Shown: in pieces, positions 13,060 to 59,100 of the stretch
Numbering within the stretch: the stretch's first letter is position 1
Layout of the letters: every line of letters begins with the position of its first letter
Source of the DNA: Amoebophrya sp. A120
Taxonomy: Eukaryota > Protista > Dinoflagellata
Length of the DNA: 64,000 nt
NCBI GenBank assembly: GCA_905178155.1
Contig: CAJINV010000019.1
Coordinates: forward strand, 316,475-380,474
Direction of reading: 5' to 3'
Program-made: the position numbers and the translations under genes
Notes under the pieces: generated by a model
The model's database searches: none
Told to the model about the DNA's origin: nothing
The model's input: only the letters and a program-made list of their open reading frames with translations

Positions 13060-16000
13060 CTACATCCACTTGTTATTCAGTGACACGACCCGGCTTTTGC
13101 TTCCGTCCTGCACGGTCGGTACGGACGCTAAATCATGCACCGCCCCCTCCTTCTGCGCCGCGGCCGAACGGCACTCGAGCCGGACCTCCCCCTCGTACAG
13201 CCCTCGTTGCATTTGCTCGATGGTTCTCGTGCCGAGATCTTGCATGCCGTGCTTCACGCCCTGGAGAACGTAGGGAATTAGAGCGGAGACGGAACCCTGT
13301 GGTCAACAAGATGGTATCATTGTAGAAAAGTGCTTCTCGTCTGTACCTAAACCTATGCACCTCACTGCATTGATCAAGCCAAAAGCGTTTAGCCACACAC
13401 GACCAGGCACCGTCACACGATCCATCACAACAGATTCATCTCCGGATTGGCAGGCAAACGGTATTCAAACCGTCCTTCTTGCATCAAAAGATAGTTTGTT
13501 CTATACCTTGTCAATCACTGCTCCGGCGACCCCCGTCCGGACGTATCCTGAGTAAAAACGTACCCACGCCAGAGTTGTAATGCAGATTTGCAAAGACAGG
13601 AAGACTTGTAATGCGCATCCCCATGCGAGCCATTTCCAGTCGTGTTTTGGAATTTGTGATGCTGTGAACAGGATGAGCAGCTGGATTTGTGATGCGGCTG
13701 CACTTGCTAACCTGCACCACACTGCAGAGTGCAACTTGTCATGCGTGACTCACAAAACGGCTAGGTTTGTGTTGCACAATCCCCATCCTGACTCTGATGT
13801 GGGTACGTTTTTACTCAGGATAGGACGGAAGAGGTCGTTAGGTGCATGGAGGTCCTCCTGTGGCCACTCGCTGCGTTTCTACCCGTGCTATCAAAAGGAA
13901 AAATTCCCCCGCCTGGTATCAAAAAGAGGTTTCTGATGCTGGATTTCAGTACACAGACCAGATTTGTCTTGCAGTAGAGGACTGCAGGCATATGCCAAGC
14001 CTGAGCCGCGATGTTTTGGCGTAGGCTCCTAGCATGAAAAACGTCGATGGTGTAGGCCCAATAGCATCACAAACCGCCTGCATGATGCGGCGGATTCTCT
14101 GGATTTGCCTGCATGCAAGACAGACAGGATTTGTGGTCACAAATACGCATCACAGATTTTCAGAAGGATGCGCTTTCAACACGGGGAGGGAGGATTTTTC
14201 CTCACGATATGTGCGGCTGCTTGGGCTCAGGGATCCGGAACCGCCTCCGCCGGCGCTGGAAGCCGTGCCACGAATACCTTGCATACAGAAAGGAAATTAT
14301 ATCGAGCTGGACTACGAGGTGAAGAGAGCATAATCGAGATGAGCATTTCGATATCCGCTTTTCGTCTATCTCTCAACACACCACTTCCTGTTCCTTGTCG
14401 TACCAGGAGAGCGAATAAAATGCGCGAAAAAGTAAGTAAAGTCCCTCAATGTTACTGTATGTGGTATCACCTCGAAACGCCTTCACGCGGAGGCCGTTGT
14501 GGTAGAAATAGTCTCCCGGCGTTTCTTCTGTTCCCGCGAGCATGGATCCGCAAACCACAGCGGCAGCGCCAAGACACAGCGCCTTCATCATTTGCCCACT
14601 GTTACCGACACCGCCATCTGGGAAATTTTTTTTTTGTGAAGAAAAGGAATGCTTCGAATGATAGCAATCAATACACGTAGATAGGTAGCACCACCACGTG
14701 GTCCCAAGAACACCACGCCCTTGTTGCAACAAGTCGCAGGACAATAAAACATCTTCCCTTCTTACCGGCCAAGACCGGCACCCCGTATTTTTCTCTCGCG
14801 TATTTTGCCACCGTATAAACCGCAGTTGCTTGCGGTCTACCCACCGCCGCCACATCGCCGGTCATGGCAACTGAGCCGCTACCCATTCCCACCTTTATGG
14901 CGTCCGCTCCGGCGTCGCAAAGAGCCTGGTTTGGGGCGCGGTTTGGATCATTGTAATTTACTAGCATGGGGATCAGAATTATTGGGGTACGATACTGCAA
15001 GACGCCATTTATCTGCATGGAGAGAAGCGAACACTCATACAAATCTCGTCCGTGCATACCGAATGAAAAAGTGAATGGAGCTGCAACACCTTATATTCAT
15101 ACGGTACCTTAGCCTGTCTGCAACTGACAACGTTTCCGGCGACGACGTCTATGCCTGGAAAAGACTTTTTGATCTTTTTCAGTAAGTCGATCTGCCCCTG
15201 TGAGTCCCCCTGGTCCGAATCCAAACACAAAACATCAACGCCACATTGTACGCATCTCTGTGCCCGGTAAAAAGCGTCTTCGTTTTCGCCGTGGGACAGA
15301 CAGGGTATCGCTGCAGCGACCTGTTTTGAATGAATTTACGTCGAATTTTCAATTCGATTTCCGCATCACAGGTCTTCTGCATCGTGTGGACCACAGTGCT
15401 GACAACGAAGAAGAATCGATTCGGAAGAAATAATCGGAAAAATGCAAACCACACGCGATTAGACATCATGGTCTCCCTGTCTATAAATGTTCGTACCAGC
15501 AGCTGTTTATTCGCGTCTTTACTTGCCAGCGGGTATTCTCGATTGGTTTTCAGGTCTGTCCTTGAAACCAGCGCCACCAAATCGCCCTCCTTGTTGACGA
15601 TGGGCAGCTTGCCCACCTTCGCCTCCTGCAGTTTCTCGTTGGCCTTCTGCAGGGATATTGGTTCTATCCCGGTGATTAAATCCGTGGTCATCACCTCGGA
15701 AAGCTTGGAATTTCTATCTTCCACCAGGTCAATATCCCGGCTGGTGACAATGCCGAGCAGTTTCCCGCCAAACTCGCCCGTGGAGGTGATTGGTGCGGAG
15801 CTGTACCCCCGCTTCTCCTTCATTTTGTCCAGATCGCGAATGGTTTGGTTCGGTGTCATGCACACAGGGTCCATGATGAACCCATTCTCGTACCTTTTCA
15901 CGTCCAAAATCTGTTGCGACTGCGTTTCCACGTCCTGGTTCCCGTGGATGATGCCGATACCGCCCCACAGCGCCATGGCGATGGCCATTTCTGCCTCTGT

Positions 16001-17686: not shown

Positions 17687-20600
17687 CTAGCTTACCCAGC
17701 TCTGCAAGTAGCTCCGATTTGCCTCCAGCCCCTCCTGCAAGACGTGTTTCTGAAAGGCAGAATCATTGCCCACGACGTGCTTGTAGGCGATGGCCAACGG
17801 CTGACACACGACGAGAATGAATCCCAGCGTTACTTTCGACGTGTCCGTCGCGTCGCGGTCGCAAAACGGGGAAACCTGCGGAAAAAACTCTCGCTGCACG
17901 TCCCCCTGGTTGAAAGTATGGATCGCAAAAGCTAGGGAAGTAGCCCAGGCCCACCTCAAAGTTCAAATGAAATTGACCTATCGTGCGAGCCCGGCGAACT
18001 ACATGACAAATATCAAGCTTTCGATCATCTACGGTGGAAGCACTTCTGTCGTGCAATTGCTATCTGCAGATCATCCTGGAGGTATCTATTCACACCTGTT
18101 TCGCAGCTTTTGCAGTGCATAGAAAAACTCATCATGGAGCTTCTCGCTCCACCGGAGCATCTGCTGCAGCGGCCGGCAGCACCAGGAATAGTCGGCGTGT
18201 CCTGAGTAAAAACGTACCCACGCCAGAGTTGTAATGCAGATTTGCAAAGACAGGAAGACTTGTAATGCGCATCCCCATGAGAGCCATATCCAATCGCGTT
18301 TTGGAATTTGTGATGCTGTGAACAGGATGAGCAGCTGGATTTGTGATGCGGCTGCACTTGCTAGCCTGCACTACACTACAGAGCTCAACTTGTCATGCGT
18401 GACTCACAAAACTCCTAGGTTTGTGTTGCAAAATCCTCATCCTAACTCTGGTGTGGGTACGTTTTTACTCAGGATACGGCGAGCTTCAGTGTCATCGCCA
18501 GCAGCAACGCCACATCTTCGAACGAGGCCAGCGTGTCCATGCCCGCGGCAAGCTTCGTCTTGAACAGGCTCATATGCATTGCAAATATGTCTGGGTCTGG
18601 ATGGATTCAACTTTGTGATGCGAGTTCTACATCATGACGAAATCTGTCATGCATGGTCAGCAAAAGACCCCATTTCCTGTTACAGAAAGGGGGCACTTGT
18701 CATGCGGATTAGGCATTGGGGTACCTGCTCGGAATCTGTGATGCTAGGGCTTGCATGCCAGACGATCTGAGCTAGGCAAAAACTGCATCACAAATGTCTG
18801 CACTCTTCCAGACCCAGACATATTTGCATTTGGTAGCTCACCTCGCGGAAGTGCTGGCTCAAGTCCGTTTTCAAAATCGCGGCGATCAGTAACTTGCGGA
18901 ACGCTTCCTGCATGTCTTTGGGCACGTGCAGGAGAAAGTTCAGCTCCGGGTCGGCTAGGTTGGTAAACGTCAAGGACAACGAGTAGGACTGGTTCACAGC
19001 CTTGTCGTTGTATCGGATGGCGCGCGGGTGCTTCACCTGAATCAGGAAGTCGTTCGACAAGCCGGGGTACTCGAGGTACAGCGTCATGCACCCGAAGAAG
19101 AGCGTGAACATGTGCAGCGGCATATCATAAGGAAAAATCCCCTCTCCCCATATCGAAACGGTATGGCACCGAAAATTTGCGCTGCTGATTTGAGACCACA
19201 AGTAGCCATGTCTGTCTTGCAAGAAGACAAGCGCAGAGGCTTCCTCGCCATTATGGAATCGATTTGGCATGCTGTTGGGCCTAGAGGACAGCCGTTTGCA
19301 ATGCTAAACCACTAGACCCAAACCAACGCCCCTACCTAGGCTGAGGATCTGGCTGCGATGCCTTACTGCAAGACAAATCGGATTTGTGTACGCAAATCCA
19401 GCATCAGAAATTTCGTTTTGATGTGGGGAGGGGGGATTTTTCATGTTGATACGGCATCAGGTTCGGGTTTTGCTGCAGCAGCCCGTGCTGCAGAAAGTAG
19501 TGCACCGACTGCGCCATGTATCGCAAGAAAAAACTGCTTCACTGTGAACTTGTGATGCAGAAAATGGGACACAGAACTCTTTGTCTTGCTACAACTGCAA
19601 GGCATTAGATTTGCAAGCGTGTTTTCCCTTAGGAAGCGCGCATGACAAAGTTTCAGTGTCATGTGTAGCAAACTTCTGATGCAGATCTTGCAAAGTCATC
19701 ACAGTGAAACAGTTTTTTCCTGTGATACCATGTTGCAGGCATGCGCGAACCCGTGGAACGGCACCTGGGCGCGGTGCCGCTCCTGCGCGAAACTGCAGAA
19801 ATTGAACAACAGGTCGAAATCCAAGTTCAAAATGCCCACCAAATCGTAGCAGATCAGCAGTTTGAGGAAAATCACCGGAATGGCGTTCACGTCGCACACC
19901 TCGGCCGCCATCAGCATGTCGCATATTGTGAGGAAAAATCCCCCCTCCCCATACCAAAGTGCGATACTTCAGAAAATTTGTGATGCTGATTGGACGCCAC
20001 AAATCGTCTCTGTATTGCAAGGAGGCAAATCCAAAAGCCCCGCCGTGTTCTGCGGGCAATTTGCAATGCTGTATGACCTACGGAGGACATGCCTGCCTTG
20101 CTAGGCGGCTACGCCAAAACGTCCCTACTCCGGCTGTGAATCTGTCTGCAGTCCTCTACTGCAAGACAAATCCGATTTGTGTACCCAAATCCTGCATCAC
20201 AGATTTCCATTTCGATACGGGGAGAGGATATTTTTTCTTTCGATATCGCACGACCAGTCGTCCATCAGCCGCAACGCGGTTTCGATCTGCTCCTCCTTAT
20301 CAAATGCAAATATGTCCGGGTCTGGAAGATTTGGGGAGTTTGTCATGCAAATTGTACATGGCCTCCGATGCCTGTGATGCATTCTCTAGCATCACAGCTT
20401 TCGCAATAAAGTCAAATATCCTAAACCCTAGACCCATAAAACCCTATCGGCGGACCGGGACGGAAGCAGGACGTAGATCGGAGGGAAGAAGATGTGGCGA
20501 AGGGGCGTAGGGGCCGCCTGATCAGAGAAAAAGCGCAAACCGCATGGTCTGAACCTAAAATTACTATGAGAATGTTCATAACCCGAGAGGATAACGACAA

Positions 20601-23600: not shown

Positions 23601-26600
23601 AGAAACTTTTATCGATGTTGAAGAGAACGCGCACAATTATCTCCTTGTGATTCTTGATGTGGTAGCAGCATGAAATTGAAAAGAGCAAAAGGGTTCGGTG
23701 GATAAGAGAGTACGAAAACGACGACTTAAGATCTTCTACTCAATACCCGATGATAAACACCAGCACCGTGCGCTTTTCCAGAAACTCCCGCGTTCTGCGC
23801 TGCATTTCGTCTAGAAGCGATTCCTGCAACTCCCTATTGAGAAGAAAAATCCCCCCTCCCCATATCGAAAAAGTATCTTTCCGAAAATTTGCATTGCTGA
23901 TTTGAGGTCACAAATCACATTTGTCTTGTAAGAAGACAAAGGTAGAAGCTTCCGCCCCATTATGGAAGCGATTTGTCATGCTGTTGGGCCTAAAGGTCAG
24001 CCGTTTGCAATGCTGAACAACTAGACCCATACGCCACTCGCCAGCCTCGGGATCTGGTCGCAATGCCTTCCTGCAATACGAATCTGATTTGTGTACGCAA
24101 ATCCAGCATCACAGATTTCCTTTTTGATATGGGGAGGGGGGATTTTTCCTTTTCACACTCCCACTGCAGCAGATACTCCTCGTTGTACTCCTGGATTCCG
24201 GGCTGCACCCGGCCGCACTATCAAGTGCAAAAGTGTCTGGGTCTGGAAGAGTGCAGACTTGTCATGCATATTTTCCATGCCTCATGAGGTCTGGAATGCA
24301 GGACCTAGCATGACAGATTCTGCGAAGTCTCTACCATGCCTATCCTGCATGAGAAACTCCCGCTCATGTTGGTCAAATATAAAAGGACAACTGTTGGCGA
24401 TCACGCAACACAGATTTTTGTGTGACCCACAGGACGCATCACAAGTTCCATCCTTCCAGACCCAGACATATTTGCACTTCATACACACCGGCGAATGACC
24501 AAATACCAGATCACCGGTTGAATCAGCAGATTCTTCACCTGGTCGAAGAAGAAGACCAGTTATGCTGTGCAAAACCAAAAGCACTCGTATGGCAATCATG
24601 CATTACAAATCTCTTTCTTAAGGTAAATCCGCATCACAAATATCATTTCTCATGCTGAGGACATTTGTAATGCATTTATACGAGTACGATACTTTTGCAA
24701 TGCATACCAGTGCGAACGTAACCATGATCTGCTCCACCTTGTCCATCCGTGACGCCTGGTGAAATATGGATGTGTCAGAGTTGAAATCGACAAAGTTCTT
24801 GAAATAATTTGTCATGCATAAAATGGATGCCGGTTGGAACCCAGTTTCCAAGTGGCGCAAGACAAACTTCGGTGGTCCCCAAGTCCTGTTTGTCATGCTG
24901 TTTAGGCAAAGAAGAGCGATTTTCTCATGCTACTTTAGCAGCTCGAGCTGTAACCCCAAACGGGCCTACAATCGGCCTCACTTGCCTGCTCTGCAACACA
25001 CGCGCCTCGGGTCATGCATTTTATGCGCTACAAATTATTTCAACTTTGACGATTTCAAACCTGACGCTTCCATATGAAAGGGCCCCAGCATGGTGACGAA
25101 CAGGATGGAGTGCGTGAAAATGACGAAGAATTGGGAAAAGCACTTGCGGTAGGCCTCCTGGAAATCGTACGACTCGTCCAGCACCGACATGTAGAGAAAA
25201 AGGTTCTCGTAAAAAAACTGCAGCGTGTTTGCGACCAGAATGGCTATGAACTGCAAAAGTGTCTGGGTCTGGAAGAATGCAAACTTGTGATGCTGTCTTT
25301 GGATTCTAAAAAGTTCTGTATTGCAACATGACCAGCAAGAGGAGTCCATTTTGCGCTATCCGGGAAGGGCATTTCTCATGCGGAATACGAATCAGGAAGC
25401 CCAATGAATAAAAATCTGTCATGCTAGGTCATGCATTACAGGCATCAGGGGTCATGCAGTGTGTGCACAACAAACCTCTCACTCTTCCAGACCCAGACAT
25501 TTTTGCATTTCATAATGGCCAGAAGGATACCACCGACGGAGATGCACCAGTTTATCCTGAGTAAAAACGTACCCACACCAGAGTCAAGATGGCAAATCTG
25601 CTAGACAAATCAGCCAGCTTTGGTCGTTTGGCATGACAAGTTCGTCTTCGTAGTGTAATCCTGTTTAGGTAGTTCAGCAGCATCACAGATCTAGTATATC
25701 ATGCTGATTGTAGCATCACAAATTCCAAAACACGACTAGACAATGCCTCTCATGGCGCTCCGCATGACAAACCTTTTTGGCATGCAGATTTGCATGACAA
25801 CTCTGGTGTGGGGACGTTTTTACTCAGGATACAGTTGGTCGTAGAATTGTCGGCGAGCTCCTTTTCGAAGCAAAAAGTCCCGAACAAACCGTAGTAGTTT
25901 TCGTACTCATTCTATCGCAAGAAAAAAACATTGTTAGTGTAACTTTGTGATGCGCAACATGCAAAGTGATTGCGGCTGTCATCCTGGGCATGCATTAAAA
26001 GTTCCACCTAAGCGCGTTTTCACGTACCATCTGCGCATGACAGGTTTTTGCTCTCCAGACAGATTTGTCATGCTGTTCCTCCGAAAAAGTTGCACCTACA
26101 ATCTTTTTTCCTGCGATACGCTCGTGGAATAGGGCAGGCACAGCAGCGACTGGTTTGCCTGCTCCACGGAGCTGCAGGCCGGCCGCGTGTCGGTGTTCGA
26201 AGATTCTGCGCTGGACGCGGTGCTGGAAAGGAGCCGATTATTTCCACCGCCCATGAAGCTATTTTTCAGTAACTGCTTGAATGTTGATCCAGGAACTGCA
26301 TCTTCGGGATGAAAGGTGTTGATTTCCTCCCCAGGTTCAGCAATCTCGCCTTCTTCGTCTTGGAGCTGCAGCCGCCGCCCCAGTCTCATGGTCTCCGCAG
26401 TGCTGTCGAAGGAATCATGCGGATTAGGCGCCTCGTGCTGCCGCAGAGGACCTGCGGGTTGCTCATGCTCTCCCCCAACTACGACATCTTTCGCGTCTCC
26501 TACTCCAAAATCCCCATGGGGACGACTACGCGGTTCGCGCCCGACATAAAACAGCGAGTGAAAAGAGTTTTCCACGAATGTACCCGCGGACGAGAGGTGG

Positions 26601-34750: not shown

Positions 34751-35152
34751 GGCATCTGCATCTCCGGCAAGCGGGGTAACGTCCTTCTGTTCCTCCGGTG
34801 TTTGGTGATCCGGGGGTAGGTGCAGCTGCGACGGGGAAGAGTATAAGTGACTGCAAACAACAGTTGTGTCTGGTCGTGGGTCTACGTAGTTGTAGAGTAA
34901 TCACAGGAATACGGCTCTGTACAATCTCTGTCTGTGAGGGGCCTAAGACTGTGAAAAGACATATGGATGCAAAACAAAATCATGTAAATCATTTCTCATT
35001 CAATTCTCCGCAGACCCTAGCAAACAAGACCGAATCTGAATTGCATACGAAGTACTGCACCGCGATGGCGACGAAAACGGAAACCACCGCAAGAGTCGTA
35101 TCCGGAAAAAAAGCGTGTCAATAACATCTCTGACTTGCTGATGTTGCAACAG

Positions 35153-38517: not shown

Positions 38518-41500
38518 TCATTCCACAAACTGCCACAGAGACGCGTCCGCGACGACCTTCTTCCAATTTGCGCGCAGCCCCATTCGCGCCGCCTTCCCCG
38601 CCCCGCGGCTTGTGATGCGGCCACCGCACGCCTTGGGACCGAAGTCGCGCAGGAAAAGACAGAAGGTCTCCGCGCCGTTTCGCTGACTTTGGTATCCTGA
38701 GTAAAAACGTCCCCACCCCAGAGTTGTCATGCTAAAGGAATTGCAGCACACTTTGCCCTCCCCTCTGCCCCAGGCCGCAGATGGCTTGACACGCAGGGGG
38801 GGTAGGTCAGGCGGACACCGAAGTGCCATCGCCATCATCTCCCGGCCACTTGCCATACTCTTACGCAACCTGCCATACTCCTCACTTTTTCGCAACCAGC
38901 CTTACTTGTCTCACAACCAGCCTAACTTTTCGAGCCAACACTTAGTCCTTTTGCCAACAGTTTCACGCCCACATCCAACACGCTAACACTATGAGTGGAG
39001 AAGTCCAGGTCTTCAGTAATAATTACCATACTGATACCTGCGGCAACATCTCCATTGCGTTACTATTCAGAAGGCTGCAAACACCAGAGGCAGATAGCGA
39101 CGCGCGCATGCCTAAGATGCGCGCATGCCCATGCTGCAAACCCCAGAGTTGTCATGCAAATGCGCAATGACAGGAACATTTGTAGTGCGAAACTCCATGA
39201 GAGGGATTGCCAGTCGTGTTTTGGCATTTGTAGTGCTGTAAACAGGATGAGAAAATGGCTTTCTCATGCGGCTTTCCTTGCTAGCCAGCACTACGCTGCA
39301 GATGGAAACTTGTCATGCAGACCTCCCAAAACTTGGGGATTTGTGTTGCAGACTTCACATCTTGACTATGGTGTGGGTACGTTTTTACATAGGATATCTG
39401 GTAGAGCATGTTCACTCCCAGACTTGCTTCCAGCATGGTGGCATCCGAAAAAAACATTTCCGGCAAAAAAATTGCGTATCACGTGCAAAAATGTCTGGGT
39501 CTGGAAGAATGCAAGATTTGTCATGCGTATTTCTCATGACCCATGATGCCTGTAATGCATGACCTAGCATCGCAGACTTTTAGAGGGCTTCCTGATGCAT
39601 CTTCCGCATGAGAAAAACCCTGCCCGTGTAGCACAAATTGTACCCCTCTTGCTGGTCATGCAATACAAATTTTTTTGGTTAACAGACCAGAATCTCAACG
39701 TTCTTGTCTCAACGTTCATGAGGCCGATGGGCAATCGTCTCAACGATTGCCCGGCGGCCCCAAACAACGCTCGTCGGTAGCGGCGGAGAGGTACGCCCGC
39801 CGCCATTGACGCGAGGCGGGGTCGATGAGACACAAGGAGGGCAAGGACGCGGCAACACACACGGGCAGGGGTGCGGGTGTGGAACACAACACAAGGAAAG
39901 GGGAGAGTCGTCGGCCAGGGCAGCCGCCGCCGGCCGGCCGGCCGGCGGCGGCTGCCCTGGCCGACGACCAGAACCCCAAACCCTAGACCCTAATCCCTAA
40001 ACGGTGCCGAAGTTGAGGCGTCGGTGTCAACGTTGGGGCGTTTTGTCTCAACGTTGAGACAAATTGGCGTGGTTGAGATTTTGGTTTGTCAACCAATTTT
40101 TTTTGAGTCCAAAAACAGCATGACAAATTGCAATCTTCCAGACCCAGACATTTTTGCACTTGATATTGCGTCGCCCGGACCGATTTCCACCTCCGAGATG
40201 GTCACGTTGTGCGTTTGGAACTGCGTCCGAAGCCGGCGAACCGCTGCGAGCTGTTCCTGCTCATTTTCCGTGTCTGTCACTTCATCTTTACTACTTTCCC
40301 GGTTAAAAATAGTGCCTCGTTCTTGAGATAAGCCGGTGGTAGCTGTGGTCTTCCTCCTCCCGTGGTTTTCCTTGTCCTCCTGCACCAGCATGAGATCCTC
40401 ACTAATGCGTCGCAGCTTCCACAAAGTATCAAAAGCCTCCCCGGAGTACATCAAATCTTGCCCTGGGGAAGAGGAAAACTCTGATGTTTTTCTCCCCAAG
40501 TCCGCTCGCAAGAAATCCCCTTCCTGTGAAGTTGGAGACAAGTGCGACGTGCTGCGGAAATTGTCGTCTTGCTCGTTCGCTGCAATGAGTGGGAGACCGT
40601 CAAACAGGTGCATTTTGCGCCGCCCCCAGTAGTTCACCAGTAGCTTTGCGTTGCAGTCATATGCAATACAAATTCATTCCCGTACATGTACAAAATGCAT
40701 GTACAATTCTCGCTATACTTGGAGCGTCAAACTTGTCATGCTGACAACTAAAGATTAAACACGAGTTTCGTCATGCAGAGACAGCATTTGGCCGTGTACG
40801 GGAATAAATTTACAGTGAATACGTCAGTATGCGCGTTCACAACCGTCCCCGCGGAGCCGCCGGTCAAATGCCTCGATTCGAAAAGCAGATGCATCCCGAT
40901 ATCGGGATCAATCGCCAGCTCGGTCGGTGGGCTCTGCGGCGCGGAGAGGATCTTCCGGTGCAGGTATGGCAAATGTGAATGCGGACAAGTGACTCCCCCT
41001 GGTCGTGGTGTTCCTCCTTAATACAAATCAATGGAGAGTACAAACCTACTCACTCTTTGTTTTGATTGTTATTTCGCACTTTTTGCATGACAAGTTTCGG
41101 GATGATCCCAAACATAACTACATCACTCTAGGCGTAAGTAGTTTTATCCTGCGCGAGCTTCAACACTGCTGTTTTCGCATGACAGGTTGCTGTCCGACAT
41201 CCCATGCTGCAAGTGAGGGAAAGATTAAGGGAGAGTCTTCTTGTTGCAGTCTGATACCAAAACGGGCGCGGACGCTGGGTGAATGTCTTCGACACGTTCT
41301 GGCATATCCTCCTGAAGGTAGAGCTGGTACGGGATTAAACTAGCACCATTCGACGTAGAGAGGCCCTTCGTTTCTGTACTGCCGCTGCTCGCAGTGGTCG
41401 CATAGTTAACATCAAGCCCCTGTGCTGGTCGTGCCTGCATGTGCGGAAAATCTTCCACGGGTGCTGCGGCATCTGTTGACGACCCCATGACCCCGGCCTC

Positions 41501-44500
41501 GGGCGGCCACGGTAGAAGCAGTTTCCGCATTTGCTCCATCGAGCAGACGAAGTCCACCGGGCGGTCGACCCAAGTTTCGATGGCGCCCAGGTGCCACGCG
41601 GCGCAGTAAAACTGGTTCGCCGCCGGCCCCCAATCCTCAAGCGAAGCGGTCCCATTCAGGGCGTGAAAGGCCTGCGACACGTGCACCGGCACCTCGAACC
41701 TGCCAAAGCTTCGAAAGTCGTTGCACATCGTCTTCCACCGCTTCCGGGTTCCGAACCGCCCAAAACGAGACTGAAAAAAGCTACGCGGCGCGGCGTGCAG
41801 CGCGACCAGGTTCCGCTTCATTTGCGCCTGTCGGATTAGGTCCGCGCGGAGAACATCGGCATCTTCGCGCGCATGCGGTAGCGGGTAGGGGCTGGCTTTG
41901 GTCTGAGGGGGCCTACTCCGGGCAGAAGTAGTTGTGCTTCGTGGTGGCCCAACAGCAATGTCGTACTTCGTGGTAACCACAGTCTGTTGTCGTGGTTGCG
42001 CGCTGCCGGCGGGAGGCGTTTGCTGGTGGAAACGGCCGGCGCCTGGGCCTTCACCATTTGAAGGTCCGCCCTGAACAACAACTGCAGGTCCAGAGCCTGC
42101 TTGTCCTTTCGCGGGAACACCAAAACCAGAGGGCGGGTTCTTCTTGTTTACTCCTTGCTTGTCTTTCGCGGCTTTTTGCTGTGCGGTTTTTTGCCCCTCC
42201 TCTTCCGCCTTTTCCGCCCTTCTATCAAATGTAAAAATGTCTGGGTCTGGAAGAATGCAAATTTGTCATGCTCGTTTGGCATGACTCTTAAATCTGTCAT
42301 GCACATTACCAAAGAGCCCCACTTTGCTGTCATGCAGAAACGTAGTTTGTCATGCAGAATAGGCAACACCTAGAAGCTCAGAAACTTGTCATGCTGAGCC
42401 AGCAATTGTGGCCTCCTCATGATACGCCACACAGCATCACACGTTTCCAGACCCAGACATTTTTACATTTGATACCTTCTGATGCCCTCCAATACTTCCG
42501 CAATGCTCCGCGTCCCCTCCGGAACCCCGACGTTGCGGAGGATCAACGGCTTTCGGGTTGTATATCAAATGTAAAAATGTCTGGGTCTGGAAGAATGCAT
42601 GTTTGTCATGCTTGTCTGGCATGACTCTTAAATCTGTCATGCACGTTACCCAAGAGCTCCATTTTTCTGTGATGCAGGAATGCAGTTTGTCATGCAGAAT
42701 AGGCAACACCTAGAAGCTCAGAAACTTGTCATGCTGAGCGAGCATTTGTGGCCTCATCATGAGACGCCACCCAGCATCACAAGTTTCCAGACCCAGACAT
42801 TTTTACATTTGATATTGTAACGTGGTTCGCTAAGATGCGCAGCAGCTTGCGGTTTTTCCATCCCTTGTTGAAGCGCGCAAAGTTCAAGGTCCGCACGGAA
42901 GACATTTGAAAGGATGCAGGAGGGGCGGTTTGCTGTAGTCCGGCGCGTTCTTGCTTACGACCAAGTGGCGCTTTTCGTGTGTCCGACGCCGCGTCGTTGT
43001 GTTGCTTAAGTTTCTTCGCTCCATGACCTTCTTGCTCTTATCCTGAGTAAAAACGTACCCACACCAGAGTCAGGATGGGGATTTTGCAACACAAACCTAG
43101 GAGCTTTGTGAGTCACGCATGACAAGTTGCACTCTGCAGTGTAGTGCAGGTTAGAAAGTGCAGCCGCGTCGCAGATTCATCTGCTCATCCTGTTCACAGC
43201 ATCACAAATTCCAAAACACGATTGGAAATGGCTCTCATGGGGATGCGCATTACAAGTCTTCCTGTCTTTGCAAATCTGCATTACAACTCTGGTGTGGGTA
43301 CGTTTTTACTCAGGATAGTTCTATTGTCCGCCCAAGCTCAACCGGCGTCGTGCGCTCTGGACGCGCTGGTTGGCCGTGCTTGGTATAACCCGCTCAGGTG
43401 TTACAATCTCAAGCGTTACAATAGAATTTGGAAATCTGTGATGCCAGAATGCATGATCTAGCCAATTCTCATAGGATTGCGCATGACAGGTTCCGGAGCA
43501 TCAAACCCCACTACAATCTGGCGAAATTTGTATTGCAGAAAGTGGAACGCTCTGCGAGTCTGTCATGCTCATCATGCAAGACAAATCTCAGATTCTATTG
43601 TAACGTTTGAGATTGTAACGTTTGAGCAAGTCATACTTGGAAGAGGGACTATTTATTCGGTGTTTCATCTTCGCTCTAGTTCGTCTTCTTGGGGTTCTAC
43701 TGACACCACTTTCGCTGCTAGCACTTATCCTATGTAAAAACGTCCCCACCCCATAGTCAAGTTGGGAACATAGCAAGACAAATCCACAAGTTTTGGAAGC
43801 CACGCATGAGAAGTTGCAGTCCGTAGTGTTGTGCATGTTAGCAAGGACAGCCGCATCACAAATCCATCTGTTTATCCTGTTTACAGCATTACAAATTCCA
43901 AAACGCGATTGGAAATGCCTCTCATGGAGATGCGCATTACAAATCTTCCTGTAATCGCAAATCTGCATGACAACTATGGAGTGGGGACGTTTTTACAAAT
44001 GATAGCACTCTCTTCTTCCTCACTGTCGCCTATCCATAAAAAAATGACCATTCCCATCCATTTTTTGCATGACAAATTCTAGTTTGTTATAATGAGCTTT
44101 ATGCATGTTTTGCATGACAAATTGGATGAGGATGGTTGTTTTTTTGTGGACGATATCGTCAGCAGAAGAACTACTTCCCCCTTCGCCGCGCTCTTGTTCT
44201 TCACTACTACTGTCAACGCTATGGAAGCGTCAGGTTTGAAATCGTCAAAGTTAAAATAATAGTTTGTCATGCATAAAATGCATACCGCGAAATACGTGTG
44301 TTGCAGAGCAGGCAAGTGAGGCAGATTGTGAGCCTGTTGAGGGGTAGAAACTGAGCTGCTAAAGTAGCATGAGAAAATCAGTCATCTTTGCCTAAACGGC
44401 ATGACAAACTGCATTTCGGCTCTACCCAAATTTGTCATGCGCCACTTGGAAACTGCGTCACCACTTGCATCCATTTTATGCATTACGAAGTTATTTCAAC

Positions 44501-46581: not shown

Positions 46582-49456
46582 CTAGTGTAGCCCTGCCTGG
46601 GTTAACATGCAGTGAAAAATAAACCTATCTACAAAAATCTGAATCTGTATAATTACGACTCTACGAGGGCTGGAAGGGCTCTCCTCCGCTCCTTCCTCAG
46701 GATCCTCCTCGGACCCTGCCGCCTGTTGTCTCGCCGCGACTTCTATGAGAGTGCACAACTCCCCCTCCCCCTCATTTGTATTGCATGAACAGCAAGACAA
46801 GCGTCAGCAAGAATACAGGTTTTGCATGACAAATTTGGACAGGAGTGTAGCGCTATTTGGGCTGCCAGAACTTGTCATGCAAACAGTGCGAAGAGGCAGA
46901 GGGTGAGTTTGGTATTTTGCATGACAAATGAGGGGGAGGGAGAGTTGTGCACTCTCATAACTTCTCGTGCGGGACGGACACCGGAAACTGAGCGCCCAGA
47001 AGGACTCTCCTGTCGGTTGCCCGTTTGCGTCTGCGTTTTGGAATTCCAAATCGATTCCCACTGTGAGTCTTCGCATGTCCGGCGAAAGGAGAAAGTCCTG
47101 GTGCTCTGCGTAGAGTCGCTCCTTCATGATACTCTTCAACCGCAAGTTCGTTCCCGGCTGCCCTCCGCGGGACGGTATCCTCGAGATGAAAAGGGAGCTA
47201 CTCCTAGCACAGAACATCGATTTTTGTTTTTCATGTCATACACTAGAAGCACCGTTATTTGGTTTCCTATGTAATATGAGGTGGAGATTTTTGAAGATGT
47301 ATCTTTCCATTAAGGGTGGAAATGCGACGTATAGGAAAGATGAAACCAAAAAACGCAGAAGCAGAACTCGTTTCTTGCATATTACTTACTACATGCCGGC
47401 GAAGTTCAGCCGCCGCTGTGTGCTGCAGCGCCATCTCTCTGTCCATGACAAATGTTCAGTTATTTTCACCGGTGGTTATATACTGTGTCTTTGCATGACC
47501 ACTGACAAGTCAAACTTCGTGCTCTTGCTAGTGTAGCATTATGAATTCTCCAGGCGATAAAATCCGGTACATGCGGCATGTGTACTTCGAGGCCGTCATG
47601 CCCACCGTCTTTCGCGAGAAACGTCTCAACGTAGTCCTGCAAAGGGCGTCCGCAACCCTTCTTCGTCAGGCTCCCCAGCAGGTCAATGGCCACCTCCGTT
47701 TTTGTGACCTCTGGGTGCGGAGGCATACTGCTCCTTCGCGATGCTTGCTGGTCTGGCGATGTTGGCCCCCCTACCCCGCCGCCACCAGCAGAAGATAGAG
47801 CTGCACCTGCTCCTGCAAACGACGTCGGCTGCTCTAGTGATCCACCTGGCGGTCGTGGAGCCATTTCATCATCCAAAACAACCTCTGGCGCAGAAGCGGC
47901 AAGTCCCCGTGGACGAAGTGCCGCGCCTGCTAGGGGTCGATCTTCTCGTGCATCGTCACTTTGCTGCATCTTCCGTGTATTTGTTCGCCGTGATGATGTT
48001 TTTAGAGCTGCAGCACCAGTTTCTGCGTCCGGTACTAGTGCCGATCCTGCGTCGTCGGCCTTTCCCAGTGCTATTCCTGCTTCTTCTCCAGAAGAAGCAG
48101 CCTCCCCTCCAGAAGAAGCAGCCTGGTGTGCTGCAGAAGTTGTTTCTGCTTCCTGTTCTTGTTCCCTGGTCCGCAGCGGAGTTGTTCTTTCCTTCTGTTG
48201 CAACATCGAGTCCCAGAATTCGTCATCCGCAACGTCGTATCAAAAGCAAAAATGTCTGGGTCTGGAAACTTGTGATGCTGGGTGGCGTCTCATGAGGAGG
48301 CCACAAGTGCTGGCTCAGTATGGCAAGTTTCTGAGCTCCTTGGTGTTGCCTATTCTGCATGACAAACTGCGTTTCTGCATGACAGAAAAAGGGGGGTCTT
48401 GGGTAATGGGCATGACAAATTTAAGAGTCATGTGAGACAAGCATGACAAACTTGCATTCTTCCAGACCCAGACATTTTTGCACTTGATACGTCGTCGGGA
48501 TCTGGGAGCAGCTCGTGCTCCGGAAAGAAGTCGTAGTCGTCGTCAGGTCGGAGGTCGTGGTCACTGTGACTGCTGTCATGCTGTGAAGGCGATCCCTCGT
48601 CCGAAACTTCGCCGGAGTGATCCACATCGGAAAACGACGAGGAAGACTCGTCCTCCTGTTGATCAAAACTGTCCTGGTTGCTGTTTCGCAAAGCCTCCTC
48701 GAACGAGGAAGTTGGAACTGGTGCGGCGCCGGCTGCTCCTCGGGCTTCACCCGTAGTCTGGCCACTGTCAGTCGAATCCTCGAAGGAATTCCTATCGGAC
48801 CTGAGTTGTCCTAGAAGATCCTCGGTTCTTTCGATTCTCTGCGTGCTGGGAGGTTGTTCTTGCTGAGTTTTAATGCCTTGACGGACGTTCTTGCTCTTGT
48901 TGATGCTGCTAGCTTTGGTCCTATCAATGGGCTCGTCGAGGACTTCCGATAGCTTCCGCGCCGAAACGACAGGAAAAATCATGCTAGTAGTAAACAGATG
49001 CGACAGGGGGCCGGTTGCAGTTCTTCTATCACCAGAAGAATTTGTTGTTCTTGTTTCCCAGCCGCTCCATTGGAGAAATCCTACATGGTCCCGCGTTGCA
49101 CACAGCAAAAGCAAGGCATAGAAGTAGCGGTAGTGGCAGTTGAAGCGGTACGACTGGTCGGAAGTAGATCTACTTTTTGTCCTGACGACCACCTCGCTGT
49201 GTCTACTTCCGTGCTCAAAATCTTCGTCGCGGCCACTTCTATTTCTTGCCGTATCTCTGCCTTGTTGAGCAGCGCATGAAGATGTTGTTTCTTGTGGCTC
49301 CTCGGCATTCTTTCTCCGTTTCCTCGTATGACAGCCCACGTTGATGTTGGAAAATAGTGCGAGGCGCAGGCGGTGCCAGGCGTGGTAGTCCTCGTAGTTC
49401 TTCTTCATTTTTTCTCGTCCGGCCAGAACTTGTAAATCCGCCCCTCGTCCGAGCAT
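46582..49456 (-). CDS. Hypothetical low-complexity protein with a hydrophobic segment; 2 TIR elements; 3' end uncertain
   Basis: ORFs 48428-49516 and 47466-48206 join in frame after removing element 48238-48489 (PDD|VADDEFWDSMLQQ). Confidence 0.55.
46744..46959. mobile_element. Singleton (L) TIR element (TATGAGAGTGCACAACTC)
   Basis: TSD ACTTC/ACTTC. Confidence 0.9.
48238..48489. mobile_element. Family A TIR element (252-bp subfamily, reverse orientation)
   Basis: TSD CGTCG/CGTCG. Confidence 0.9.
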
Positions 49457-50431: not shown

Positions 50432-52600
50432 TTAAAAAGCTGTGGAGACAAAAATTCTTCTTGTGGCTAAAACCGCATTAGAAGTTGTTGTATTAATCAT
50501 CTTCATCCCCAGCTTGTAGATATAGTTTTTGTTGCAACGTCTCACCGCAACCGCGTTCTGTTCGTCTACCGCCTTACATTCGGTACTTCTGTTCGCGTCA
50601 TTTTTCTGCGTTGCGGATGCGAGGCTTGATGCGTTGTCACTTTCAAGAACGAGATCTAAGACAAGTACAGCATCGTGGTCCGCAACTCCATCTACACCTG
50701 CTGCAGGTCTGCGAGGTACAAAAATTGAGAAAAAGGATGATGAGCTACAACGGCGTCTAGCAGTAGCAATTCTGTGTTTCGTAAAAGTTGCTCTTTCCTC
50801 GGTGGAAGTGACTGACAGGTCTGTGCTGTTTTTTGGCACGACATCCACGAGTTTGTTAATGTCGAACTGCAATTGTTCAAGGAAAATTAGCACGCTAATA
50901 CTTCTTGATAAAACTGACTGTGATAAAGAAAAAAGCTTCATTTAGCCCCGTTCACTCCTTTAAAAATTGTCTCCATGTCCTTTCGCATGCGCCAGTGCCC
51001 GCCGACGGCTGGTGTATGGATGTGTTTTCACTTTCAGTTGAAGAAGTGATTGCGAGTGCCTTTCTTGTGCATAAGAGACATCCGTAAAAACAAAAGACGC
51101 AAAAAGTAAAAACAACTACAAGGCAGCATAAAATAAATTGATACGTCCCTTCGTCTTGTCGTAGAAGTCCGAGACGTTCTCCGTCTTCGCTTTGTACGCC
51201 AGCAGCTCGAGGGCATAAAAATCCCGGCGGTTATGGATCGAAATTTTTGCAGTGTCACGAACGGATATTAAACAGAATGCAGTACGATACGTGCCATGCC
51301 AGGAACATATAAGATCATCAGTACTACTACACTGATAGTGTTGATCTACTTTCGCAACAAATGATCACGAAGATGGTCAGTGTACACCTGGACAACAAAA
51401 AATTTTGCAGAATGTAAGTCTGCTCGTGAATTTCTTTTTTATCTTCATCATCATCTTCGTCGTCCTGATCCTGCAATACAAATTTGCTGCTTTCCTTGGA
51501 TATTCTCGGCCACGGATGTACTGGTGCAGCAGTAATGGCACGGTGCATGGCCACACGACGGTACCTGGGGCAATGTATTTGTCATGCTATAGCATAGACT
51601 GCAACATCATCAGTGATAGTTGTACACAATAATGAAAACGTGGTCATGCCAAACATCATGCGACGCTGTGTAGTTGCTTCATCTGCAAACCGCTGACTGA
51701 GCTTCTAAAAAACATACAAAAGTAATCCCACAACAAATACGGCAAAAAGTTCCCGCTTTAATCACCCTGACCCTGCCCCAGGCGGTCATTCTTGGGGTGA
51801 TAAACGCAGTGTGCGCCGTTTTCAGGATTCCGCCCAAAGCTTCCATCTTGTCAGGTTTTTTGTCCTCGTCAGGTACCAAGCAAATCAAGTACTCCAGCCC
51901 AACACGAAACTTCGTGCAATCCAGCAAACCACTACACACAGTAGAAAAGAACTGACCAGATAAAATTTCACGGTATCAGAAACAATGCCCTGGCTTGCCT
52001 AGCCCGAGCGTGCACCGCTTATACATGCGTAACTCTCCTGTATTATCCAAAGAACAAGCAGCGCAAGAAAGAGCCATGTCTCGTCGCAGATGAAAAGCAG
52101 CAACTGTATCTAAGTCGGTTCTAAGGCAGCAAACATCTCCTGAGAGTGAAGCAGACGGATGAAAAAAGTGCTACTACTCTACTCTCGCGTACTTCGGCTC
52201 TGTGTTGTCGCTCATTCCTCAAAGCTCCACAACAGGCAGAAAAAAAAACAAGTACTTAATACAGGCACGTACAACTAGAACAGAAAACCCGTACGATCAG
52301 ACCAAGACTTCCGCATCCGGTTCCAAACACGGTTTACTCAGTTTCAAATGACTGTATCATACCGTGCTGCTTTCTTGTCGTTTTGAGGTTCCTTGAAAAA
52401 TTCTGTATACTTCGCTGTCTGCGTTCTTGACATGAGTCGATAGGCCGCCAAATGGAGTACTTATTCCAAACTTTCCGTGCTGTGACTCAGGATGTAGTCG
52501 TACTTAGCAGATTTTTTCTGTCGGGACCCGAAGAAGATACCTATTGTCCTTTCACAGGCCCGACGAGAAAATTGTGTCTGGGGGTACCATAACACAGCCG
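50432..52600 (-). CDS. Possible multi-exon hypothetical gene
   Basis: Short protein-like frames ending at GT donors (e.g. HNRRDFYALELLAYKAKTENVSDFYDKTKG near 51150-51235); no homology recognised. Confidence 0.25.
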
Positions 52601-52760
52601 GAGGTCGACAGGAGCAGTCGCGGGTAGTTTTTGTGTAGCGCTGGTCAGAAGCAAGACTAGGAGTGGGAGTTGTCGTGAGAAGTAGATAGATTGTTCCTCA
52701 CGCCGATGATCCACGATTGATCGCGTTTGCTACTTACCCGCACGAGGACAAACTTGTTTC

Positions 52761-55112: not shown

Positions 55113-56139
55113 GGTCCACAGACTTTTTCGGCGGTCGTTTTTACCGTATCAATTTCTGGACCGTTGTCGCTAGTATCGCAGCTTCAAGATGAGCGGCAAA
55201 AGCGCACCAACCTTCGCCACGTTTTCAAGTTGATGAGTGGCAGTCGTTGAGTGAAAAAGTATACGGATAACGATCGGTCTCTTTTCTACAAAGAGTCTGT
55301 CAACAGCTGCTTGTGCTTCTGTGGTCCGCTACTATCGATTGGAAAAATTTTTTGAGTAGGGAATCAATGATGAAGAATAGCCTCTAGGTAGTACAATGCT
55401 GTTTCCGTGTGGTTGTAGTGTCGCTGTTCTTGTATAGTAAACCAGGCTGTTGAACTAAAACTAGAAATAAATGAAAGAGAAGGTGATGAACAACTGATAG
55501 CGATGTGCACCTTCCGTTCACCTTTAGGGATCTTTTCTGTTCTTTCTCGGTAAGCGTTGAGATCCCGTTCCAGTGCGAAGCTGATGATCTTGATCTTTTG
55601 GAAATAATACGTACTGAAAGTGTAGTTCAGTGTAGCAACAAGTTTTTCTTGCGCGGATGAACAAGTGGCAGTGCGTTCTGCCCAACGTGATAAGTAATCC
55701 GACTATGGTGACCAGGCATCCCTCATGAAGGCCGAGCGGTATTGAGAGGTAAGTACAACCTCTTGCGCCACCAGATCTGGTGTCTTGATGTTCTTGCTGT
55801 TTCGAAAAGCCTAAGTGTCCCCGGAAAAGAAGTGCAGTTGTTACGACTCCTGGCGGGGGCCCTAGTTTTCCTTTCGATTCGCCGTTCAACTTCAAAGTAT
55901 CAAAGACGTCAATTCTATATGCTATAGCTTGTCCTTTTGTCGCTTTCGTGTTTCTTATTTTCAGATAGATACCAAGTATCACCGTGATGATGATCATGTC
56001 GCACTTTTGTAAAAATCATGGTCAGCATGTGTCGTGTATTTCATGGGTTCAAAAAATCTTCCATCGTTGTCGGTGTCTGTTCCCAAGAATCTTTCATCTT
56101 CCGCCCGACCACAGTCCCCTCCCCACGCGGCTGCTTTTA

Positions 56140-59100
56140 TCACCCCAGCGTCCCGACGCTCTGCAGGGCCCCGGCCACTGTGTCGACCGCTGCGTCGGTG
56201 GCGCCCTTGATGGCGATGTTTGCGGTCGGGTGACCAGGCGTGAATTGGGCGTGGAGAAAGACCTTTGCGTTTCCGCTTATGGTTTGCCCAGCAAGCATCG
56301 CTTCCTGCCCGATGATCTCGACACGACCGACCCCGAGGGTTTGTTCCAATTTCTGCACCAGGACGTCGCAAGTGGGGACCTGATTGTCGATAGATGTAAG
56401 TAAATGCTTGCAATAGTCTATGTATCTGCAGCTTCAGGGGGAGAACAATGAATCCTATTTGGACCTTCTCAAGGTTGATGGACATCAACATGTTGATTCC
56501 CAAAAAAATGCAAAGGATGAAGACCCTTCCAGCACACAGAATGAAAAAAAAGGCCGTTATTAACATCTTCACCCACCGCTCAAAATTCCTAGTACCGATG
56601 GCCCCAGCCTGACAGCGACGCTTCTTTCCGCGGGTAGCGTGCCCCACTCCGCTCCGAGTTGGTCGATTTTTATCGCGAAAGGCGTCAAGACGTGGGGTCG
56701 TTGATCAAGCGTTTTTACCGGAGACCGGGGGAGGGGGGAGAAGGTGTTATTTCCAACGACGGGTGTCGCTGTCGCAAGTCCTGGGGAGGCCGATGATGAA
56801 AAGTCGAGGGACAAGAGATCGTTTCCGGTGGGGGGAGCTTCCGTTCCTGTTCTCGCAGTCGGACCCCCGGGAGAGGTAGATATGAGCAGGTCTGCAGCAG
56901 ATGAGGTTTGTCCAGTTGAGGCTGCTGGTGGTCCAAGACTCAGCAAATCTTCCTCCGCGCCACCTAGCAGATCGCTGCTGGATCCCTGCGCAGGGTAATT
57001 AGGATTTTTGGTAGTGCCACTACCACCACCGGCTCCTGAATCAAGTAGATTTGATGCCCCGTTTGGATCCCCAAGTAAGTCCACCTGCTTCTGCTGCGCG
57101 TCGTCCGCCGGGCTGGTGTGCGTTGTTGTCGTAGAGCTCGTTGCGTTCGAGGAAAGAGACAGGCTCGCTGCGACCTTCTGTTGGTGTGCCGTGCCCGCTC
57201 CGGGTGGCGGCTATCAAATGTAAAAATGTCTGGGTCTGGAAGGCTGCAACTTGTCATGCACATTTTACATGGCCCATGACGTCTATGATGTACTCCCTAG
57301 CATTACAGATTTTCTGAGTGCTTCTTGATGCCTATTCCGCATGACAAATGGCCTCCCCGCGTAACACAAACTGGACTCCTCTTGCTGAGCATGCACTACA
57401 GATTTTTCTAGAGTCCAAAGTTAGCATCACAAGTTCCAACTTTCCAGACCCAGACATTTTTACACTTCATAGCGGCTCAGGTTGCACGGTAACCGGCTGC
57501 GCGGGCGTCGCCGTCATACCGGAAAAGAGCGCTGCGGCCATTTTTTCTCTTTCTATCAAAAGAAAAAACGTCTGGGTCTGGAAACTTGTGACGCTGGGTG
57601 GCGTCTCATGACGAGGCTACAGATGCTGGCTCAGCATGACAAGTTTCTGAGCTTCTAGGTGTTGCCTATTCCGCATGACAAACTGCGCTTCCGCATCACA
57701 GAAAAACGGAGATCTTGGGTAATGTGCATGACAGATTTAAGAGTCATGCCAGACAAGCATGACAAACATGAATTCTTCAAGACCCAGACATTTTTACATT
57801 TGATACTTTCGGTCTGTCGCTTATTCTCCATCGGCGCGGGCCTGGGCGCTGTTTGGGGCTGGGAATTAGTCGTCGTGGCTCCAGTTGATTGAGAACCTGA
57901 TGCTACGCCTGCCGCTGTGGTGGCCGTCCCGGTAGAACTTGCCGACCCCCCGGCCACATTGTTGGGCAGTTGCTGCGGCTGCAGTGCGGCAGGCTCGTTG
58001 TACCTGGTAATTTTGCAAAGTGAACTTTAATTGTATATTACGGGTAGCAAGTTTGGAAAGTGAGTAAACACTGCGTGCGAGTAGGTGCTGGCATCTCGTC
58101 CCTTCTCTTGGTTCTAGGAGAATACAGCTCTGCAGGAGAAATGGTGTTTTCTCACTCCAACTACCGGCAAAATAGGACGACGACGACGAGAATTACATAT
58201 CATAGACATGTATACGACCATCATTTTCATCGTTCATCGATCTCTGGCGTGCAAAAACACTTACCCTGCCGGCCCCCATTTTCTCGCCGCATTTTTCCCG
58301 GTCGTTTGCAAGCTCAGCCCCCCTGCTTTCTCGCTGTTCACGTCGAATAAGCCGCCGAGCCCCGCATTCTGCAGCTTGCCCTGCATCCCAGGTTCCGCAG
58401 CGGAGGACCCACTTGACCCGCCTTGTGCTAATGCTCCGGAAACACTGCCCGCCCCTCCCAACAAATCCCCCGAGCCGGCGCCTGCCATCAGGCCGGAGGG
58501 CGTGTGCATCTTCGGGCCGACCTTTGGCGCTTCGTAGGGGGTGAAATTGATCGCGGCTTTGTGCAACGGCTTGGTACTTGATGTTCCCGAAGGATTTGCA
58601 CTGTTGCCGCTGTCTCCACCCACCCCACCCCCGGACATTTTCATCTTCCTCCGCTCCTCTTTCGTCAAATACCGACTACTTGCGTCCGCGTTCCGGGAAA
58701 CGTAATTGTTCAGAAAAGACAAATTTTTGTCGACCGCGACGTCCTCGCAAGATCCGTCGAAGGGCAAGACGATCTGCATCACCTTGGTACTGCTTTGCTC
58801 GACCATGCGTTTGAGCTCGTAGCACCGCTGCTGCAAATCCGTGGACCTCGACTCCCGGTACTTTTCGACCACCTCCAAAATTGCCGCGTCGTTGCGCAGC
58901 AGAATGTCGTTCTGCGCGGTCAGCTTGGTCAGCGCCGAGATCAAAAAGCATCTCGTTTCTGTTATAACCCGCTCAGGTGTTACAGTCTCAAACGTTACAA
59001 TAGAATATGGAAATCTGTGATGCAAGAAGTGCATGAGCTAACCTACTCTCACAGGATTGCGCATGACAAGTTTCGGAGCCCCAAACCGCACTAGAATCTG

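Follow-up and report, generated by a model that had tools for sequence, protein, structure and literature searches.

Repeated introns bounded by inverted repeats were described in the dinoflagellate Amoebophrya sp. A120 by Farhat et al. (2021, BMC Biol 19:1, PMC7789003), according to whose text more than 60% of A120 introns are non-canonical and 29,850 repeated introns make up 17% of the assembly. As described there, these introner elements carry inverted repeats of 8-20 nt, with direct repeats of 3-5 nt over their borders, and their inverted-repeat motif is TAT, seven variable nucleotides and then at least three A; a hairpin joining the exon ends was proposed, and no U1 small nuclear RNA (snRNA) was found. 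That paper left open by what means Amoebophrya excises its tens of thousands of introns lacking a splice-site consensus. Here we analyse a 64,000-nt stretch of the same genome (assembly GCA_905178155.1, contig CAJINV010000019.1, positions 316,475 to 380,474 of the forward strand; hereafter the window), in which 66 MITE-like elements (MITE: miniature inverted-repeat transposable element) interrupt minus-strand genes. They are the published A120 introners: the host is A120, and they show inverted repeats, direct repeats, the TAT-N7-A motif and non-canonical removal. They also share with the published elements the lack of a splice-site consensus, many copies, the lack of coding capacity and a setting of co-oriented gene blocks. 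Copies of one subfamily lie both ways within these genes and are removed exactly in either orientation; removal is independent of the internal polarity of the element. With the system and the hairpin idea already known, this two-way tolerance is a modest addition. What the window likely adds is balanced two-way insertion in strictly defined subfamilies, removal of both orientations from one transcript, a polar interior that is idle in removal and, probably, a single cut register. The text and supplement legends of Farhat et al. use “orientation” of genes only, and do not state balanced two-way insertion, the polar TGTNATGC interior or the single 1/4 register described below; our literature search found no paper on the orientation of Amoebophrya introners.

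A close comparison is with euglenids. One review (PMC11282704) sets the Amoebophrya elements beside the nonconventional introns of euglenids, the removal machinery of which is also unknown; in its account those introns have non-canonical borders, end pairing, repeats like target-site duplications (TSDs), a suspected MITE origin and ordinary introns alongside, all as here, and excised RNA circles are known for them. The elements in the window are nevertheless of another kind, since the host is a syndinean dinoflagellate, in a different phylum, and pairing is by terminal inverted repeats (TIRs) of ~30 nt in multi-copy families, whereas euglenid pairing as reviewed is short (+4..+6 with -8..-6). 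The canonical introners described for Micromonas, Aureococcus, Symbiodinium and Polarella resemble ours in being transposons, bearing TIRs and TSDs, whose insertion generates an intron, mostly with no change in mRNA length (PMC9860276, PMC12130899), but they take GT/GC-AG from the element or the TSD, so that strand matters, whereas this possibility is closed to 57 of our 66 copies. Gozashti et al. (2022, PMC9860276) allowed for insertions in opposite orientations and described canonical splice-site recruitment, and the pipeline of Gozashti et al. (2025, PMC12130899) demanded same-orientation alignment. Introner-finding pipelines with that demand will split or miss two-way families.

We built the element catalogue from repeat finding, a scan for TAT...ATA pairs and BLAST of the matches against the window. 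The 66 elements cover 18,322 of the 64,000 nt (29% of bases); three composites measure 662-704 nt and the other 63 elements 146-330 nt. T, A and T occupy positions 1-3 at 129, 128 and 130 of the 132 ends. The TIRs are ~30 nt, with Watson-Crick pairing at positions 8-30 in 48-64 of the 66 copies, and in the listed copies at least 18 of 24 terminal bases are complementary between the two ends. A 5-bp TSD is perfect in 52 elements and matches at four of five positions in 11 more. The elements are thus MITE-like in being short, multi-copy (families of up to 20 copies in 64 kb) and equipped with TIRs and a 5-bp TSD. Rfam gave no match anywhere in the window.

The initial annotation had claimed that the same element is tolerated in both orientations relative to transcription, citing three subfamilies, A, B and C. 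Every copy that it named exists where it had been placed, and each subfamily does occur both ways inside minus-strand genes, pairwise identity being high only in the matching orientation. The copies of A, B and C, and further elements referred to below, are:

42223..42474, plus strand (called forward): A copy 1, 252 nt, TSD CCTTC (5/5), the sole named copy with a possible GT-AG register
42563..42814, plus strand (forward): A copy 2, 252 nt, TSD TTGTA, no canonical dinucleotides in any of 6 registers
48238..48489, minus strand: A copy 3, 252 nt, TSD CGTCG, 90-91% identical to copies 1 and 2 as reverse complement
57554..57805, minus strand: A copy 4, 252 nt, TSD CTTTC
13544..13822, plus strand (forward): B copy, 279 nt, TSD GGACG, within the IMPDH gene
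18198..18476, plus strand (forward): B copy, 279 nt, TSD CGGCG, one end TGT in place of TAT
43039..43317, minus strand: B copy, 279 nt, imperfect TSD GCTCT/GTTCT
25553..25831, minus strand (as 43039): B-like copy, 279 nt, exact junction spanned by protein P0121
43726..44004, minus strand (as 43039): B-like copy, 279 nt, RNA joint
311..626, plus strand (forward): C copy, 316 nt, TSD CTTGC, exact junction spanned by protein P0122
44220..44530, plus strand (forward): C copy, 311 nt, TSD AACGC, RNA joint
24765..25074, minus strand: C copy, 310 nt, TSD TGAAA, exact junction spanned by protein P0121
57212..57471, no strand assigned: element of the largest subfamily, 260 nt, TSD GCGGC, no canonical register
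39477..40165, no strand assigned: composite element, 689 nt, RNA joint
40660..40821, no strand assigned: element of another TIR type, 162 nt, imperfect TSD AGTCA/CGTCA
43384..43635, no strand assigned: element of a third TIR type (TATAACCCGCTCAGG), 252 nt, RNA joint

In subfamily A, 42223-42474 and 42563-42814 are 92% identical on the same strand, and each is 89-93% identical to 48238-48489 and 57554-57805 solely as the reverse complement; over the inner 172 nt the figures are 89-94% as reverse complement versus 53-55% in the wrong orientation. The two forward B copies are 94% identical (13544-13822 and 18198-18476) and match 43039-43317 at 94-95% as reverse complement. The C copies are more diverged, 311-626 and 44220-44530 being 79% identical and 77-84% identical to 24765-25074 as reverse complement. 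Across the A, B and C pairs, inner parts compared in the wrong orientation reach only 51-59%. The 8-mer TGTNATGC occurs 212 times within elements (18.3 kb) versus 26 times in the remaining 45,678 nt, and subfamilies A and B each hold 4-5 interior copies, spaced ~20-50 nt apart and all pointing the same way, so that the polarity of the element is real. These arrays look like subterminal transposase binding sites.

Orientation was then counted within the window by strict clustering of the 63 elements of at most 400 nt, using the inner region alone and linking pairs of at least 70% identity that exceeded the other orientation by at least 12 points. Ten clusters took in 54 of the 63 elements with no inconsistent links; seven are of mixed orientation (10:10, 4:4, 3:3, 3:2, 1:3, 2:1 and 1:1), and the remaining three are 2:0 each. 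A looser single-linkage BLAST group of 52 elements (polarity 28:24) was set aside; in it the direction of the interior motif agreed for 34, disagreed for 10 and was tied for 8.

That the host genes lie on the minus strand is indicated by Pfam IMPDH/CBS and Adaptin_N matches, by the mapping of three annotated A120 proteins (P0001, P0121 and P0122) to that strand, by RNA-skipped GT-AG introns, which read CT..AC on the plus strand, and by long open reading frames (ORFs) that emerge on the minus strand only once the elements are excised. The minus-strand IMPDH exon, with its Pfam IMPDH and CBS matches, is 100% identical to P0001, a 546-aa Amoebophrya sp. A120 protein.

Exact removal is recorded in contigs of runs X1-X4, which come from one sample labelled “RNA?”. 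We treated them as transcript contigs because they skip GT-AG introns (51009-51144, 56378-56593 and 58004-58264) that are retained contiguously in X5, which we treated as DNA. The X5 contigs run contiguously through elements and non-canonical introns at single-copy depth (40139-42245 at depth 25.8, 48464-53016 at depth 29.9). In 39300-44650, eight element joints in X1-X4 (three of them in X1-X3) remove exactly the element plus 5 nt:

39470>40165: 694 nt (689+5), composite 39477, removed as a single unit, X1-X4
40655>40823: 167 nt (162+5), element 40660, both=4
42217>42475: 257 nt (252+5), A forward copy 1, X1-X4
42557>42815: 257 nt (252+5), A forward copy 2, X1-X4
43033>43318: 284 nt (279+5), reversed B copy 43039, both=1, X1-X3
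43378>43636: 257 nt, element 43384, X1-X3
43718>44003: 284 nt, reversed B-like copy 43726, X1-X3
44214>44531: 316 nt (311+5), C forward copy 44220, X1-X4

A single X2 contig of 4,574 nt crosses most of these joints, including those of two forward A and two reversed B copies, and both orientations are therefore removed from one transcript. For the reversed A copy at 57554 the fit is by length only: X1 record 5 has 272 nt between 57207 and 58261, and the 783 nt missing equal 265 (57212+5), 257 (57554+5) and 261 (a GT-AG intron). The preceding piece of that record stops at 57206, directly ahead of the left TSD copy of 57212. The same contigs join across further introns, all on the minus strand:

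51228..51503, minus strand: non-canonical intron, 276 nt, joint 51227>51504, both=0; A + TAT...ATA + ACCG in transcript sense, borders with no repeat
40970..41257, minus strand: non-canonical intron, a decayed element, 288 nt, starting G+TATCAG, joint 40969>41258, both=4
44026..44155, minus strand: non-canonical intron, a TAT...ATA element, 130 nt, imperfect TSD GACGA/GGCGA, joint 44025>44156, both=3
58004..58264, minus strand: ordinary GT-AG intron, 261 nt, sharing a transcript with A copy 4
56378..56593, minus strand: ordinary GT-AG intron, 216 nt, between X1 record 5 pieces 55740-56377 and 56594-57206

Annotated proteins, which are public and hence not independent of the A120 genome paper, extend this to other parts of the window. 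Together P0001, P0121 and P0122 span 17 exact junctions in both orientations. Residues 416-468 of P0001 match at 100% only when 13544 (B forward) and 13889 are excised, each with 5 further nucleotides; P0121 contains 23-residue junction peptides for 23015, 23835, 24219, 24561, 24765 (C reversed), 25245, 25553 and 25913; and P0122 contains exact-junction peptides for 311 (C forward), 1228, 1549, 1860, 2391, 2976 and 3397. Exact removal is thus evidenced for both orientations in A, B, C, the largest cluster and the 13889-type cluster.

Reading frames agree. Excision of each element plus 5 nt raised the longest minus-strand ORFs from 1491, 1410 and 1191 nt to 1887, 1848, 1791, 1638, 1542 and 1512 nt; control excisions of +4 or +6 produced no lengthening, and +8, which keeps the same frame as +5, did. 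Summed minus-strand ORFs of at least 300 nt came to 43,569 nt after excision, whereas 200 same-size random excisions averaged 32,214 nt and never exceeded 36,840 nt. Single ORFs cross 5-9 junctions of mixed orientation (among them 183-3955, 23743-27118, 31708-34900 and 41228-44078), and when RNA-supported introns are removed as well, one frame stays open for ~3.8 kb across 38693-44220. Element by element, an ORF test with 150-nt arms discriminates poorly (54 of 66 at +5, 40 at +4, 32 at +6 and 37 on the plus strand), and we give weight to the long ORFs over several junctions in its place. At 48238 (A copy 3), where no RNA contig covers 45.4-50 kb, ORF evidence supports removal: excision at +5 joins minus-strand arms of 1022 and 769 nt, and the +4 and +6 controls break one arm (317 or 164 nt). 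The forward B copy at 18198 lies in long minus-strand ORFs after excision, although there the +4 and +6 controls do not discriminate.

The borders of these introns are mostly non-canonical. Since the 5-nt repeat makes six registers equivalent for each element intron, every register was considered: GT-AG, GC-AG or AT-AC is possible in some register for nine of the 66 copies and in none for the other 57. The initial annotation had named two outcomes that would count against it, retention of one orientation and use of cryptic GT-AG junctions, and neither was seen, the joints being element plus 5 nt both ways. Imperfect or absent repeats narrow the register, defined as the number of nucleotides taken from the upstream repeat copy in transcript sense:

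43039: register 0-1, RNA joint
40660: register 1-5, RNA joint
40970-41257: register 1-5, RNA joint
44026-44155: register 0-3, RNA joint
25913: register 0-2, annotation
51228-51503: register 1 only, RNA joint with no repeat (both=0)

Register 1 alone is compatible with all six informative junctions, putting the first cut 1 nt upstream of TAT and the second 4 nt downstream of ATA, and a single 1/4 register for element introns is likely. The annotated proteins do not resolve the register at 13889, 24219, 2976 and 3397, where imperfect TSDs alter no amino acid. Read in register 1, the three cases resolved best show CT..AG, GT..AC and AT..CG at their borders, and only one of the 66 copies becomes GT-AG, which sets the elements apart from canonical spliceosomal introners. 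In tRNA introns and archaeal bulge-helix-bulge introns, RNA cleavage is structure-defined: where the cuts fall depends on how far they are from a helix, sequence being irrelevant. By analogy only, the fixed 1/4 register suggests comparable behaviour.

We consider it probable that removal is guided at the RNA level by pairing of the inverted element ends, each cut falling a set distance from the base of the helix. The inverted termini are the only features common to both orientations. RNA-verified elements include five unrelated TIR sequences that have TAT/ATA alone in common, and all are removed; because TAT/ATA is too little for sequence recognition, complementarity is left as what they share. 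When the transcript strand is folded by prediction, no fewer than 15 of the first 30 nt are paired with the last 35 nt in 61 of 63 elements, and the fold figures are equal for the two polarity groups (-0.385 and -0.392 kcal/mol/nt, median 27 of 30 paired). On this reading, miniature DNA-transposon copies would insert in coding sequence either way, duplicating a 5-bp target; once transcribed, the inverted ends would pair identically whichever way the element lies; and the machinery would locate both cuts by how far they lie from the base of the terminal helix, without reading local dinucleotides. Cuts 1 nt before TAT and 4 nt after ATA would allow the exons to be joined with loss of the element plus 5 nt, and the polar interior would play no part. 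Exact two-way removal of A and B copies that are 89-95% alike, the sharing of TAT/ATA and end complementarity only, and the apparent fixed offset narrow the search for the mechanism to a reader of paired termini.

Candidates for that reader would be a spliceosome acting with no U1, as Farhat et al. suggest, or an endonuclease with a ligase. The latter, a non-spliceosomal route in which an RNA endonuclease that measures the helix makes one cut 1 nt before the paired ends and another 4 nt after them, leaving a ligase to rejoin the exons, we regard as rather unlikely. If true, it would give nuclear mRNAs a third way of losing introns, one that euglenid nonconventional introns could in principle share, and would explain the orientation blindness, the missing border consensus and the exact undoing of the 5-bp duplication.

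Several points weigh against pairing-guided removal. Paired ends follow trivially from the TIRs needed for transposition, so that folds alone prove nothing, and positions 4 and 7, near the cut, are often unpaired (Watson-Crick in 40 and 24 of 66). TIR mismatches in transcript sense show no excess of G.U over A.C (116 versus 108, p = 0.64), and the wobble-pair test therefore gives no support for selection on an RNA stem. The case for a single register is built on six junctions, of which annotation supplies one, and supposes that every family follows the same rule; forward A and B copies, whose repeats are perfect, contribute no informative junction. The contigs give no splicing efficiency, so one orientation could be removed less well than the other, and X1-X4 are a single sample called RNA only from the GT-AG introns that they skip. 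The initial annotation had proposed a symmetric removal signal, either the TIR stem in RNA or a protein bound to double-stranded DNA. Its symmetry holds as far as independence of polarity goes, both orientations being lost as element plus 5 nt with 57 of 66 copies lacking a canonical option; an RNA stem as the signal is plausible from the folds and the unrelated TIRs yet unaided by the wobble test, and the DNA-bound protein is disfavoured.

The best-surviving alternative, which we hold to be possible if doubtful, is that the spliceosome (reported to lack U1 in A120) reads each end by sequence, as N followed by UAU at one side and AUA plus 4 nt at the other. Inverted ends would supply both signals either way, with no helix. 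The near-invariance of TAT/ATA (128-130 of 132 ends) fits this, as does the absence of wobble bias in the stems. Ordinary introns in the window also start with GTA (GTACTA, GTAAGT, GTATCA, GTATTT), so that +2/+3 agree with N-TA, and in most families a run of U lies 10-15 nt ahead of the 3' cut (TIR positions 11-15 being A). Nearly all spliceosomal proteins were found in Amoebophrya, according to the text of Farhat et al. (PMC7789003). Three conserved bases are, however, too little information for site choice, and C-, 43384- and 40660-type ends have no A-run yet are removed exactly. Most copies also lack AG at the 3' cut (seven of 66 have it in register 1). The fixed register, moreover, gives first and last intron bases of C..G, G..C and A..G in the three best-resolved cases. 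Spliceosomal introns with first/last combinations of G..G or A..C are known, and these cases do not fit them.

Far less probable is excision at the DNA level in transcribing nuclei, by a transposase-like protein acting on the inverted ends, the mRNA being copied from repaired DNA. The model for this is the internal eliminated sequences (IESs) of ciliates, which, like the elements here, are transposon-derived, bounded by short repeats and precisely removed in an orientation-blind manner, in their case from DNA. Loss of an element with one TSD copy is the outcome of precise transposon excision, and to a protein bound at double-stranded ends the two orientations would be alike. In apparent contrast to IESs, however, the DNA-like X5 contigs keep the elements contiguous with their flanks at single-copy depth in 40139-42245 and 48464-53016, whereas the RNA contigs lack them, and the RNA contigs without elements also lack GT-AG introns. 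The intron 51228-51503 is precisely removed though its borders have no repeat, and the text of Farhat et al. (PMC7789003) reports no general transposase in A120.

Even less credible, in our judgement, is a library artefact in which reverse transcriptase jumps between the 5-nt direct repeats across a stable hairpin, so that the introns are only apparent. Template switching is classically expected where a hairpin is combined with short direct repeats, but with the elements left in place nearly every gene here would be interrupted; exact excision reopens ORFs as long as 3.8 kb over many junctions where the +4 and +6 controls fail; and exact removal is also seen at imperfect repeats (43039, 40660) and where there is no repeat (51228-51503). 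The idea that cryptic GT-AG sites close to the element ends are used, a separate set for each orientation, has next to no probability left and is refuted for the copies that RNA contigs cover: a GT..AG reading is open to A copy 1, but every observed joint is element plus 5 nt and 57 of the 66 copies have no GT-AG, GC-AG or AT-AC in six registers.

Some further features of the elements and their hosts deserve mention. The 5-bp TSD and TAT...ATA ends are constant across at least five unrelated TIR types, and one transposition machinery may serve all the element families, given the shared TSD length and ends. TIR positions 11-13 are A in 114, 118 and 127 of the 132 ends, an A-run that is not present in C-, 43384- and 46744-type TIRs. 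The three composites (39477-40165, 38693-39396 and 20298-20959) have outer TIRs and further inverted repeats inside, and are probably nested insertions. A subfamily of ~320 nt has a C-rich TIR block (AAAAATCCCCCCTCCCCATATC) and occurs in both orientations, 3:3, its copies being:

13889-14209, C-rich-TIR subfamily
19123-19451, C-rich-TIR subfamily
19924-20245, C-rich-TIR subfamily
21813-22134, C-rich-TIR subfamily
23015-23334, C-rich-TIR subfamily
23835-24157, C-rich-TIR subfamily

The RNA-supported GT-AG intron 51009-51144 (minus strand) starts with G+TATCAATTT and ends with ...CATCCATA+CACCAG, resembling a shortened element in which an AG 6 nt past ATA has taken the place of the 4-nt register; it may represent an intermediate between the two kinds of intron, element and ordinary. 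Raw RNA-seq runs X9 and X10, which carry the same species label, gave 9 and 100 reads on 40000-59999, nearly all partial and on repeats, and do not seem to represent this genome. In the IMPDH gene (13504-14296, minus strand), A120 residues ~416-468 are low-complexity and are encoded by mini-exons of 82, 61 and 40 nt parted by elements 13889 and 13544; tblastn with the A25 orthologue (P0004) or Toxoplasma IMPDH gave no match for this stretch. Lastly, after excision in 18089-22250 (minus strand), two frames, of 1203 and 1113 nt, are both open across the same nine element junctions.

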